DNA of 64,000 bases, taken from the NCBI GenBank assembly GCA_951406725.2, contig OX597821.1, positions 50,654,001 to 50,718,000 of the forward strand, in the 5' to 3' direction. The DNA is from Octopus vulgaris. Lineage: Eukaryota. A program made the translations under genes and the position numbers. Below are positions 7,407 to 37,520 of this stretch, piece after piece (the first letter of the stretch is position 1; each line of letters begins with the position of its first letter). The notes under the pieces were generated by a model. The model was not told the DNA's origin. It made no database searches and was given only the letters and a program-made list of their open reading frames with translations.

Positions 7407-7736
7407 GTGATGCATATATGCCATTTGAATATGGCTAACCCATAAGGGTGGATGCTACTGTAGTTTGTAGCCCCAGGAAGATATCTCCTCCAGCTGGCTA
7501 TAGACACACTATCTGTGTCCTGTCAGTATTTGTGAAGGGGAGTCATCCTCCCCGTCTTCAACACATGATACACACGTACCCGAAACTCGGGTACGTGTGA
7601 CTCCCCTTCACAAATACTGACAGGACACAGATAGTGTGTCTATAGCCAGCTGGAGGAGATATCTTCCTGGGGCTACAAACTACAGTAGCATCCACCCTTA
7701 TGGGTTAGCCATATTCAAATGGCATATATGCATCAC
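7407..7736. mobile_element. Fold-back element with 139-bp arms (7407-7545 / 7598-7736); truncated member of the hammerhead-bearing ~360-nt family
   Basis: Arms are reverse complements. The centre holds GAAACTCGGGTA (3' half of a hammerhead). The arm shares CTCCC, GGACAC..GTGTC, CCTGGGGCTA and GCCATATTCAAATGGC motifs with 31721-32111. Confidence 0.85.
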
Positions 7737-8043
7737 AAATATATCGTTCTAGTTTTAGTATATCTACTGCCAAAGCATGTACATTATTGGTTTCAAAGTT
7801 TGGCACAAGGCCAGCAAGTATGAAGGAGGGGATGAATAGATTACATCAATTCTAGTGCTCTACTGGTACTTATTTTATCGACCTGAAAGGCAAAATTGAC
7901 CTTGGCGGAATTTGAACTCAGAACGTAAAGAGGGACGAAATGTCGCTAAGCATTTTGCCTGGAGTGCTAAAGATTCTGCTAGTTCGCCGCCTAAAAGCAA
8001 AGACAAATATTAATAACATTATATATATATATTTTTTTTTTCG

Positions 8044-9545
8044 GATAAAACCAAGAACTTATACCTGATAGATAACAGCATATATACACAACTCTTACAC
8101 AACAGCATCATTAATAATTACACTAGGGCTAGGCCACAGACATATAATGAAATTAATAAAGAAGCTAGCGTTATCGCCGCTAAACTTAAATTAAATAAAA
8201 AAATAGAAGTCCTCCCCCAAAAAGAGGCCTTTATTACAATTAAAGACCACAAAGAGAACTTCCTTTCCAACCCTAAATGTGAGCTTATCAACCCAGCTAA
8301 GTCAGAACTTGGGATTATTAGTAAAGAAATTTTAGATAAAATAAATGCGAAAATTAAGACCGCTACTAGGCTAGTACAATGGTCCAATAGTATAGAAGTC
8401 GTAGACTGGTTTAAAGCCATTAAGAATAAGAAAAAAGCGAGGTTTACACAATTCGATATTGTTGATTTTTATGCCACTATCTCTAAAGAACTGCTAGATA
8501 ACGCCCTCGTCTTCGCTAGCGATTTCATAGAAAACAATACAAATGATAAGGACATAATCTTCCATGTTAGAAAAACCTTGCTTTTCAGTGAGAACGCAAA
8601 GTGGGTCAAAAATACCGACACAGAGGGTGCTTTCGATGTGAGCATGGGGTCATATGATGGAGCAGGCATTTGCGATCTTATTGGATTTTTTCTCCTAGAT
8701 ACTTTAGGTAAGACATTTCCTGACGTATATTTCGCCATCTACAAAGATGATGCCCTCGCTTTAACCGCTAATACAAATGGACCAGCACAGGATCGTTTTA
8801 GGAAGGATATTATCCAATTAATGAAATATTTCGGACTTAGTATAACTATAGATACTAACCTGACGGTTGTCAATTTCCTAGGCGTTTCCTTAGATCTAAA
8901 TAAGAATATTTATAAGCCTTATAGGAAGCCCAATGATAGACTTAGTTATATTAATGTAGATTCGTGCCATCCCCCTATAGTATTCAAAAATTTAGTTAAA
9001 AATATTAGTAAGAGAATTTCTAGCCTCTCCTCCGATAAGGACATTTTTAATAGCGTTGCCCCAGTTTATAATAAGGCTTTAAAAGATAGTGGATTTAGCG
9101 AAAAAATAAAATATACACCTGTTACTAGCCCAACAGTAAAGAAGAGGAAAAATAGAAATAGGAAGATCATCTGGTTTACACCCCCTTACTCACCCGAGGT
9201 GACCTTCAATATAGGTAAATATTTCTTAACACTGATAGATAGACATTTTCCAGTCAACCATACTTATAGGAAACTCTTCAATAAACATAATTTAAAAATT
9301 AGTTTTAGTTCTACTACCAATTTTAAAAATATAATCACACATAACACACAAAAACCACAAGAAAACAGCTGTTCATGCAGGAATAAAAAATTGTGCCCGC
9401 TAAATGGAGCTTGCATGTCCGAGACCATCATCTATGAAGCTGCCGTGGACTCTATAACCACTAAAGACACCGTTTCGATGAAGAAATACGTGGGCCTTAC
9501 AGAGGGTAATTTCAAGGCCAGGTTCAATAACCACACCTTGAGTTG
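8044..9545 (+). mobile_element. Penelope-like element ORF (RT + Cys linker + GIY-YIG), truncated at both ends
   Basis: Frame is open from ~8044 (DKTKNLY...AFITIKDHKENF...QFDIVDFY...FDVSMGSYDGA...IYKDD...FLGV...WFTPPYS...CSC..CPLNGAC..IIYEA..KYVGLTEGNFKARFNNH) and ends in (TG)n. The ORF-track entry at 8578 is its 3' part. Confidence 0.92.
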
Positions 9546-9935
9546 TTATATGTATAACAACTTGTGTGTCTGTGTGTGTATCTGTGTGTGTGTCTGTGTG
9601 TTTAACTTTTGGACCTACCAAGTTTCATTATTAAGGATGGAAAGTAGTGTGTAGCAAATCTATATATATAAAGCTGAAGTTGTCTGTGTATGGCAGGTTT
9701 GGTAGCCTTCAACTAACACTACCTCCTTCGAGACCCTGCATCGCAAGTTGACCAAAATTGAGAGTATGATAGAAGAAGGCGTGCTCTTTATTCTGTAGAA
9801 GATAAAATTCAAATCGGATCATGTTAACACCAAAAATTATTTACATCAAAAAGGTGCTTTTTTTTCTATGAAAAGCCCTTATGTGTATATATATATATAA
9901 GTATGTATATATATATATATATATATATATATATA

Positions 9936-10046
9936 AGTAATTAGATAAAGATGTCTACGGTCGCCCATAGCCATCTTTATCTAATTACTCTACTGCTCTA
10001 TAGCTTAGTGGGTACTTCTCTGTCGGATTTATGATTTACTGACGTT
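9936..10046. repeat. Short hairpin insert within a (TA)n tract
   Basis: AGTAATTAGATAAAGATG...CATCTTTATCTAATTACT inverted arms followed by TACTGCTCTAT, a motif shared with ~42062. Confidence 0.7.
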
Positions 10047-10580
10047 ATATATATATATGTATATATATATATTTATATGTATATATATGTATATGTATGT
10101 GTATATGTATGTGTATATATATGTATATGTATATATATATATGTGTATATATATATATATGTATATATATATATGTATGTATATGTATATATATATGTAT
10201 ATATATGTATATATATATATATGTATATATATGTATATATATGTATATATATATGTATATATATGTATATATATGTATGTATATATATATATGTATATAT
10301 ATGTATATGTAAGTATATGTATATATATATATGTATATATATGTATATATATATGTATGTATATATATGTATATATATGTATGTATATATATATGTATGT
10401 ATATATGTATATGTATATATATATGTATATGTATATATATATGTATATATATGTATATGCATATATATATGTATATGTATATATATATGTATGTATGTAT
10501 ATATATATATATATATATATATATATATATATATATATATATATATATATATATATATATATGTATGTATGTATGTATCA
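10046..10580. repeat. (TA)n/(TATG)n microsatellite; representative of many (18600-19000, 35970-36300, 44600-45090, 55640-55990 etc.)
   Basis: Directly visible. Confidence 0.99.
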
Positions 10581-35600: not shown

Positions 35601-35970
35601 TGGACAAGCAAATTGAGAGACTGGCAAAAGTGTAGGGGATGCGCTAGGCCAGCAAAGGAACCCCCTGTGCAGATTCAGCCGTGGCCAAAAACGGATTCGG
35701 CATGGTCTAGACTACATGTGAATTTCGCAGGACCAATAAATGGCTCTTATTATATCATTGTGGTGGATAGCTATTCCAAATGGCCTGAAGTGTGTAAATG
35801 TTCAAAGCCAAGCACAAGTGTGACTATCAACTTCTTGGAAGATACGATCGTGTCAGATAATGGTACACAATTCACGGCGAAGGATTTCGAAAGATTCTGT
35901 AAGTCGGTTCAGAAGAAGCATGTGTTAACTCCGCCATACCATCCAAGGTCAAATGAGTTAGCGGAAAGAT
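32604..35970 (+). pseudogene. Ty3/Gypsy (Mag/K02A2.6-like) gag-pol, frameshifted and 3'-truncated at a TA tract
   Basis: Gag with CYGCGDRHLRKDC and CFKCGK knuckles; protease LDTGS; RT SEWAAP, RLPFG, YLDD and KYLG; RNase H VASDAC and HADGLSRL; integrase [22 protein letters not shown] and PYHPRSN..AER. Confidence 0.95.
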
Positions 35971-36300
35971 TATATATATACATATATATATACACATATA
36001 TATATACAAATATATATACATATATATATACACATATATATATACATATATATATATACACATATATATATACAAATATATATACATATATATATACACA
36101 CATATATATACATATATATATATACACATATAGATATACACATATATATTTATATATATATATATATATACACATATATACATATATATATATATATACA
36201 TATATATAAATACATACATATATTACATATATATATATATATACATACACATACACACACACATATATATATATATATATATATATTTATATATGCATAT

Positions 36301-36714
36301 ATGGGTACAGGACGTCACAAAACGTTAACAACATGAAATAAGAAAACAACATGAATTGCGAAATACGAAAACATGAAATACGAAGGCAAACCTGGGTATG
36401 TGAACAACGAAAGAAACAAATTGAAAACAAGACAAGTAACATAAGGAACTACCCTTCATCAGTTGTCGGCTGTTTATCTACTCCAAATTTCGAGCAATTT
36501 TCGACAATACGTGTCTTCGAGGAACCAAAATAAATTTTGGGATTGGTGGAGGGTCAAATTTGGTAACAAAAACAGAACATACTACAAAGCAAACGAAAAC
36601 AAACAGGGAGGGCCGTTATGTTACTTGTCTTTTTTTTCCATTTGTTTCTCATACCCAAGTTTGTCTTTGCATTTCATGTTATGTTGTTTACGTTTTGTAA
36701 CGTCCTGTACCCAT
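36301..36714. mobile_element. Fold-back element in (TA)n with ~100-150-bp imperfect inverted arms; related copies at 32215-32461 and ~50640-50965
   Basis: ATGGGTACAGGACGTCACAAAACG...CGTTTTGTAACGTCCTGTACCCAT; CTGATGA-containing segment between the arms. Confidence 0.75.
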
Positions 36715-37189
36715 ATATGCATATACATACATATATATACATAAGTACGTACATATATGTATGAACATATGCATATATATACTCTTTTACTCTTTTACCT
36801 GTTTCAGTCATTTGACTGCGGCCATGCTGGAGCACCGCCTTTACTCGACCGAATTGACCCCGAGACTTATTCTTTGTAAGCCCAGTACTTATTTTATCGG
36901 TCTTTTTTGCCGAACCGCTAAGTGACGGGGACGTAAACACACCAGCATCGGTTGTCAAGCAATGCTGGGGGGGTCAAACACAGACACACACACACATATA
37001 TATATATATACATATATACGACAGGTTTCTTTCAGTTTCCGTCTACAAAATCCACTCACAAAGCATTGGTCGGCCCGGGGCTATAGCAGAATACACTTGC
37101 CCAAGATGCCACGCAGTGGGACTGAACCCGGAACCATGTGGTTGGTTAGCAAGCTACTTACCACACAGCCACACCTGTATGAATAATAT

Positions 37190-37520
37190 ATTTCTAAATC
37201 TCTGAGAGATTTAGAAATCTATTATTTCTATTTTTGAAATTAGTGAATGTATTTCACTTGAATTATATGTTTACAGAGGAAGATAGGCATCGACAGCTAG
37301 CAAGCCATGCTATTCCAGACTGATGACGAGCAATGACTCAGAAACTAGTCTCTTAATGCTGGATTTACTGGATGGATGTGCTTATCTCCCCTTTTGTAAA
37401 GATAAGGACAGGAAATGTGTCATGGCCGACAGGAAGCGGTGCTTCCTAGGGCTAAATAGCAGTTGTATTCTTCCCTTTCATGGGACTGCCACATTAAGTT
37501 GACAACATACCACCACTTTA
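37190..37520 (+). mobile_element. Further member of the ~360-nt hammerhead family, starting with a short fold-back
   Basis: ATTTCTAAATCTCT-G-AGAGATTTAGAAAT hairpin; then hammerhead, CTCCC, GGACA..TGTC, CCTAGGGCTAAA and GCCACATTAAGTTGAC; followed by (TA)n. Confidence 0.75.
37314..37363 (+). ncRNA. Type I hammerhead ribozyme motif
   Basis: TCCAGA-CTGATGA-C-GAG-CAATGA-CTC-A-GAAAC-TA-GTC^-TCT..GGA; palindromic ACTAGT stem III. Confidence 0.72.

Follow-up and report, generated by a model that had tools for sequence, protein, structure and literature searches.

Four short inserts without an open reading frame (ORF) lie in a 64,000-nt stretch of the Octopus vulgaris genome (contig OX597821.1, positions 50,654,001 to 50,718,000; hereafter the window), and they raise the question of how a repeat with no protein of its own could be dispersed. 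A sequence-only reading of the window had regarded them as structured, hammerhead-bearing units with circularly permuted ends, moved as a circular RNA by the reverse transcriptase (RT) of a Penelope-like element (PLE). The units belong to an abundant, recently active, ORF-less family, which joins the known retrozymes without long terminal repeats (non-LTR retrozymes). The best explanation, held with moderate confidence, would be a hammerhead repeat inserted in trans by a PLE enzyme, which copied a likely circular RNA and left ends at two fixed sites.

All four related inserts were found close to where that reading had placed them, and they were colinear, with a pairwise identity of 54-64% (z 5-17 against shuffles). 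The absence of any ORF from the four units (ORF list of the window) and the (TA)n adjoining copies 2, 3 and 4 also held good, and direct repeats in inserts 2 and 3, detected by BLAST of the window against itself, gave the proposed periods of 363 and 357 nt. The extents were revised by the same BLAST. The segment 7407-7736 was a palindrome and not a single unit, inside an insert whose true extent was 7361-7733, flanked by a 12-bp target duplication (7349-7360 and 7734-7745, of which 11 bp were detected by the script). Likewise, 20180-20350 was an inverted copy of 20527-20697, and 37182-37226 was self-inverted, with 37182-37209 as an inverted stub. The GCCAYATT hairpins did begin at 7708, 20670, 32079 and 37488, with a loop of 4 nt instead of 3. 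Type I hammerhead folds were recognized by a descriptor scan at 20493, 31902 and 37320, in copies 2 to 4; insert 1 carried only the 3' half of the motif, which was whole in its genomic sisters, and the cores at 20493 (U3-A8) and 31902 (U3.G8) were not of the C3-G8 type.

Each of the four units had its own high-copy family (F1 to F4). The copies consisted of one arm or of two opposed arms, and each arm could end at a short or at a long 3' site, as listed here for the window:

7361..7583, minus strand: F1 copy (locus L081), main arm, 5'-truncated just ahead of the hammerhead cut site (unit position 174), long (tail) 3' end
7584..7733, plus strand: F1 copy, inverted arm, with the hammerhead 3' half, a 27-nt gap and a 3' domain stopping a few bases short of the short 3' end
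7349..7360, no strand: target-site duplication on the left of the F1 copy, 12 bp, with its second copy at 7734-7745
20180..20350, minus strand: F2 copy (locus L031), inverted arm, short 3' end against (TA)n
20346..20760, plus strand: F2 copy, main arm, 1.14 units of 363 nt, long 3' end, tail at 20698-20760
20487..20528, plus strand: type I hammerhead fold of the F2 copy, U3-A8 core variant, predicted cut after 20522
31720..32112, plus strand: F3 copy (locus L001), single arm, 1.1 units of 357 nt, short 3' end, within (TA)n
31896..31940, plus strand: type I hammerhead fold of the F3 copy, U3.G8 core variant, predicted cut after 31934
37182..37209, minus strand: F4 copy (locus L056), inverted tail stub
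37195..37520, plus strand: F4 copy (older family, sisters 84-91% alike), almost one 347-nt unit, short 3' end
37314..37356, plus strand: type I hammerhead fold of the F4 copy, canonical C3-G8 core, predicted cut after 37350; stem I decayed here, intact in most sisters
32079..32094, plus strand: conserved GCCA/TGGC hairpin about 18 nt ahead of the short end (also at 7708, 20670 and 37488), within the motif matched 16,111 times genome-wide

First-look candidates numbered 2,530 for F1, 1,947 for F2, 1,799 for F3 and 2,872 for F4, and the pattern across two shared 3' motifs gave its 16,111 genome matches against 4 for the reversed control. Full units were 353 nt (F1), 363 nt (F2), 357 nt (F3) and 347 nt (F4) long, with a guanine plus cytosine (GC) content of 41-46%. 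Among 40 scored sisters per family the identity was 97-99% in F1, 98-100% in F2, 94-99% in F3 and 84-91% in F4, and 38 long copies fell into 20 groups at 88% identity, a few of them rearranged or decayed. Most copies were partial monomers and not long arrays; the longest mapped arm had 1,426 nt and one array 5.5 units, with lengths biased upward, as the F1 to F4 loci were the best matches to long queries. Cut-to-cut monomers, with two consecutive whole hammerheads, were present in 6, 10 and 23 rows of F1, F2 and F3 loci (overlapping loci included) and in none of the 25 F4 loci.

The ends were mapped on 236 arms in 134 distinct insertions, after 11 overlapping loci had been dropped. In 207 of the 236 arms the 3' end lay no more than 7 nt away from either of two sites, the short site and a long site beyond it, 44-63 nt into the next unit, and both were homologous across all four families (short and long ends in 31 and 26 of 68 arms of F3, 29 and 37 of 71 of F2, 19 and 35 of 59 of F1, and 22 and 8 of 38 of F4). 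The 5' ends were scattered, and the ends were not LTR-like. Two-armed, outward-facing inserts numbered 86: 67 combined a long with a short end, none had long+long or short+short, and 19 had one odd end, so that the long+short rule holds in 67/67 classifiable cases; the other 48 insertions were single-armed or other. The rule was examined again on a position-based sample (86 loci, 100 insertions), because the first loci had been best matches to long queries. There, 47 insertions were two-armed, of which 25 were long+short by profile, none long+long and 13 odd, while the nine called short+short by profile were all found on reading to enter the tail on one arm (6 whole, 3 partial). (TA)n flanked both sides of 68 of the 134 insertions, one side of 39 and neither side of 27, and 12 of the 14 detected target duplications were 11-12 bp.

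A tail, an inverted 5' copy and a bias to TA are hallmarks of PLEs (Craig et al. 2021, PMC8557442). In vitro, the PLE tail is the stretch between two RT start sites, and both strands of the target are cut and extended (Frangieh et al. 2024, PMC11167929). The octopus copies had the tail at one end, the inverted 5'-truncated arm, the partial tandems and the AT/(TA)n targets of PLEs with an endonuclease (EN+), and here too the hammerhead was not the end of the template (compare PMC8557442 and PMC11167929). They differed from EN+ PLEs by the lack of an ORF, by a tail of 44-63 nt against the 30-40 quoted, and by a canonical hammerhead with a 6-bp stem I in place of the minimal PLE form. As a positive control, the autonomous Hydra-clade PLE beside insert 1 was long+short in 12 of 13 measurable two-armed copies. 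Since the footprint is that of Penelope-type elements, use of PLE machinery is likely, and the spread of the family was very probably PLE-driven and non-autonomous.

For the RNA, a stem I of 6 bp, a stem II of about 4 bp, a short palindromic stem III and the conserved core made up a canonical type I hammerhead, save for the core variants of F2 and F3. The core pair was C3-G8 in F1 and F4, U3.G8 in F3 and U3-A8 in F2, with the variants fixed in their families; natural PLE hammerheads with a U3-A8 core are known (PMC4209133, also the source of the canonical definition). A hand count over the first 100 of 1,776 F1/F3-clade matches gave 28 C-G, 43 U.G, 28 U-A and 1 C.A, and U3-A8 occurred in two clades separated by well supported C3-G8 lineages (57 rows, 54 distinct). 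Judged from sequence comparison, this pattern suggests that the fold of the ribozyme was under selection, and it is no guide to the ribozyme's rate.

Covariation, on which the sequence-only reading had staked its structured RNA, was present. A structure of 43 pairs was paired in 92% of cells on 16 diverged subfamily copies, against 82% when shuffled and 27-48% when slid, and two-sided changes were seen in 23 of the 43 pairs, including all 6 pairs of stem I. The predicted hammerhead call rests on these covarying helices and on the core nucleotides. In the predicted fold the hammerhead sits at the end of a rod of 33-48 pairs, and in 15 of 16 copies this rod outdid every one of 20 shuffled arms. 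The automatic consensus fold missed the rod because it was misaligned by MAFFT, and the rod was therefore tested copy by copy. Its arms flank the cut site and bridge it by pairing, and one further helix joins the start of the tail to the 3' domain, enclosing the short end. When cut-to-cut monomers were folded as circles, 62-63% of their bases were in pairs, with z values of -2.9, -6.3 and -6.4. At the base of the rod, F2 unit positions 225-234 were the 5' end of 12 of 71 arms, perhaps because the structure halts copying there or because joining is frequent there.

Whether the template was a circle or a linear RNA was then considered from the cut site and from the tandem units. The cut site was crossed by 185 of the 236 arms, and 5 arms started within 3 nt of it, with 4.7 expected. 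A template ending at the hammerhead cut was rejected, as 5' starts there were at chance level, and read-through without an excess of starts means that the template was uncut or re-ligated. Tandem units within one insert differed by 1.45% in F1, 0.65% in F2 and 1.19% in F3, against 3.01, 1.04 and 2.28% between inserts, and 23-45% of variant sites were shared within one insert versus 1-7% between inserts. Lineage alleles were the same in 61 of the 73 tandem comparisons, where about 9 were expected, and in 120 of the 151 inverted ones, where about 20 were expected, and five full units of one array had 9 differences from another copy in common. A circular RNA template fits these data without being proved by them, and we consider it probable.

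The most serious alternative, though clearly less likely, keeps the same non-autonomous, PLE-driven element and replaces the circle by an uncut linear multimer from a tandem source copy, with a hammerhead that rarely cuts or is only part of the fold. Tandem units fit it as well as they fit a circle, and read-through and shared variants would be explained equally by a multimer from a uniform source array. U3.G8 cores are fixed in young families, and the main substrate of the anole PLE is uncut RNA (PMC11167929). It also accommodates the mosaic inserts (L004, L088, L045), which weigh against a circle because a single circle copied repeatedly gives none unless the template is switched. Without a monomer bottleneck, however, the units of an array should diverge, yet lineage and private variants are common to them; moreover, the rod arms pair across the cut site and the core pair was repeatedly restored, neither of which suits an uncut linear template.

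Besides the mosaics, other observations count against a cleaving, circular RNA carried by a PLE. The tandem comparisons disagreed in 12 of 73 cases. The young and successful F3 has the U3.G8 wobble and one older lineage has C3.A8, so that cleavage is possibly weak or lost. Hammerhead mutants of the anole PLE still insert (PMC11167929), and among nine frog retrozymes cleavage in vitro was found in one and not in the other eight (bioRxiv 10.64898/2026.07.22.740005). The Rfam hammerhead was absent among the 150 listed of 204 window matches, which were simple-repeat and chance matches only, and it gave no match at the gathering score in 6 loci and none at E<=10 on two intact copies. The 43-pair structure was drawn on the F1 row and its 16 rows are related, which lessens its weight. 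In addition, the unit profile matched no ends of three autonomous PLE families (two Hydra-type, one Neptune-type), and among these no partner was found.

It is very unlikely that the units are only 5'-truncated ends or solo pseudo-LTRs (pLTRs) of an unseen autonomous PLE, despite the PLE-type insertion footprint and the match between Xenopus retrozymes and PLE pLTRs (bioRxiv 10.64898/2026.07.22.740005). Where an autonomous PLE has its 5' untranslated region (UTR) and ORF after the tail, the octopus unit has about 135 non-coding nt and then the hammerhead, and the single RT + GIY-YIG ORF that autonomous PLEs carry between pLTRs is missing. At 200 loci, 182 profile matches reached the unit start: 113 directly followed the end of a previous unit, 34 followed an inverted arm and 35 followed neither by profile, many of these 35 showing a short remnant of the previous unit and others host DNA. 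A sense PLE ORF was found in none of 106 free 5' flanks, where the single PLE protein match was antisense, and a linked PLE ORF at none of 66 position-sampled loci; attachment to such an ORF is what ordinary pLTRs had been expected to show. Pairs of hammerheads 1.4-3.6 kb apart were considered as ORF-bearing parents and ruled out, as the long-period repeats were local segmental duplications.

The circularly permuted ends claimed by the sequence-only reading, which would follow if a circular RNA were opened and copied from arbitrary points, are scarcely credible now. The claim drew on two window copies whose terminal repeats stand in different registers, whereas the fixed 3' ends, one half of what that reading had itself named as its refutation, largely refute it; the difference in where the two copies open comes from one having the long end and the other the short end, each with its own 5' truncation. 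A DNA-level repeat, such as a foldback or miniature inverted-repeat (MITE-like) element or a minisatellite spread by recombination, is the least credible of all, since common palindromic inserts and a few arrays and local duplications (L236, L255, L293) are outweighed by palindrome centres that differ in every copy, arms with unequal fixed ends, common single-arm 5'-truncated copies and covarying RNA helices.

Insertion of the hammerhead repeat by a PLE enzyme could then proceed in five steps. A read-through transcript of a copy with two hammerheads would cut itself to a monomer and close to a circle, as for the retrozymes of mussel and coral. The circle would present the hammerhead on its predicted, covarying rod of about 40 bp, together with a multi-hairpin domain that contains both end sites and is likely the binding region of the PLE protein. 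To judge by the duplications and the TA targets, a GIY-YIG nuclease would make one nick in each strand of AT-rich DNA, with 11-12 nt between the two nicks. Each nick would prime reverse transcription internally, presumably so that one strand starts at the short site and the other at the long site, 44-63 nt beyond it; the two sites are seen in the footprint, and the enzyme would be that of a PLE. Copying continues past the cut site and across the junction between units, over as many as 5.5 units, before it breaks off at scattered places, and the inverted two-arm inserts likely arose by head-to-head joining of the two complementary DNAs.

A bolder version is only tentative. The circle of about 350 nt may on its own be a complete landing pad, free of protein, for a dimer of the PLE enzyme; the dimer would prime at two fixed sites of one and the same circle and roll on across the ligated ribozyme junction, and about 20 diverged subfamilies would have tuned the ribozyme down (C-G to U.G and U-A) and so kept the circle closed. 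If this were true, the life cycle of retrozymes would be proved from genome sequence for the first time, and PLE-based insertion would gain a natural minimal template.

The retrozyme class is already published, and the value of the octopus family lies in a clear PLE footprint on an ORF-less unit. Circles of non-LTR retrozymes were shown in coral, mussel (350-390 bp) and axolotl, and PLEs were named as candidate movers (Cervera and de la Pena 2020, PMC7229834). The octopus units resemble these in unit size, GC below 50%, one type I hammerhead per unit, tandem copies, absence of an ORF, a target duplication above 4 bp, a highly paired predicted circle and PLEs in the same genome, and their tandem units fall within the 150-450 bp expected of retrozymes. 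They differ in that cleavage and circles were demonstrated there, while the octopus unit is known from genome sequence alone, and in being mostly partial monomers instead of long arrays. PLE mobilisation was only suggested in the accessible text of that paper, which does not describe two fixed ends, tails or inverted arms, and cephalopods are not mentioned in its main text.

A 2026 preprint takes retrozymes as non-autonomous PLE derivatives, from co-occurrence and from pLTR homology in Xenopus, with the mechanism left open (Li, Clavereau, Pollet, bioRxiv 10.64898/2026.07.22.740005). The octopus units are likewise read as non-autonomous units using PLE machinery, and the two consecutive units with whole hammerheads that Li et al. 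ask for occur in F1, F2 and F3. By contrast, no mollusc was sampled according to the accessible part of the preprint, where local array growth from a pLTR is also proposed, while in octopus no homologous pLTR was found in three PLE families and the footprint points to dispersal by PLE-type priming. Non-autonomous elements of Chlamys such as MRC1 (PMC8557442) are similar as ORF-less PLE dependants with pLTRs and head-to-tail copies, but they have 3' sequence in common with an autonomous partner and mostly lack canonical hammerheads. The protein-binding region of the anole PLE lies in the start of the ORF (PMC11167929), unlike in the ORF-less octopus unit. For cephalopods, 235 Rfam hammerheads were counted without context in the giant squid genome (PMC6962438), and a literature search that covered few subscription journals and neither Repbase nor Dfam turned up no paper on retrozymes of cephalopods or on retrozyme tails.

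The two-start-site PLE pattern, the strict long+short arm rule and the PLE control from the same genome make the footprint unusually clear evidence on how retrozymes move, and about 20 diverged subfamilies offer a covariation map of the RNA that a PLE enzyme must recognise. Together they bring the question within reach of the in vitro PLE assay that already exists. The family, of at least 16,000 copies, is also a large repeat family missed by Rfam.

Fragments of PLE ORFs do occur near two of the inserts, as had been pointed out, at 8017-9654 and about 37790-38400. The window PLEs are, on sequence grounds, independent neighbours with their own ends unrelated to the unit; the structure, the size and, very likely, the PLE-driven movement proposed earlier stand, and a link to the two named neighbours is not supported. 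The PLE at 8017-9654 belongs to the Hydra clade by its RWK, DKT and CxCx5C motifs. It is young and very abundant (locus L121; 717-aa ORF, 2,589-nt unit, 67-nt tail, 16,503 first-look candidates) and bears an atypical hammerhead-like motif; the fold around its ends was no better than shuffles, and the PLE proteins of this and related families were not recognized by Pfam. The piece at 37790-38400 comes from a second Hydra-type family, of which it is the GIY-YIG end; this family had 13,184 first-look candidates and, at other places, open frames >720 aa, and no hammerhead was seen by eye in its 3' UTR. A third PLE piece, at 20807-21482, is a two-armed 3' fragment that shares its TA tract with the F2 copy and has its own short and long ends, with minimal hammerheads of U3-A8 core at 20893 (minus strand) and 21396 (plus strand); 3,413 first-look candidates were found. 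We take this fragment to be of the Neptune clade from its zinc-finger motif.

Contigs of four sequencing runs, of unrecorded library type and with three only guessed to be RNA, covered 27-29 of 29 bins of the F2 unit and showed neither strand, level, ends nor circles; F2-like sequence with 90-99% identity was found in sequencing-run contigs of two organisms. Local arrays and duplications were few (L236, L255 and L293). At locus L255 (315-1270), about seven 119-nt repeats consisted of the last 55 nt of the unit, the tail and a TA run, probably a local expansion after insertion, and at locus L293 a unit lay antisense within an RTE-like long interspersed element (LINE), later duplicated four times with a 1.38 kb flank.

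Elsewhere in the window, an exon with an ANF_receptor ligand-binding domain was found at 30278-31036, with the F3 copy about 700 nt downstream on the same strand, and read-through RNA may come from this exon. The stretches at about 950-2300 and 4600-5930, 3,650 bases apart and near an N run, had one ORF translation and one set of repeats in common, which would be either a local duplication or an assembly repeat. Pieces resembling a decayed LTR retrotransposon, with gag, RT and integrase-like frames, occupied 32712-35960.

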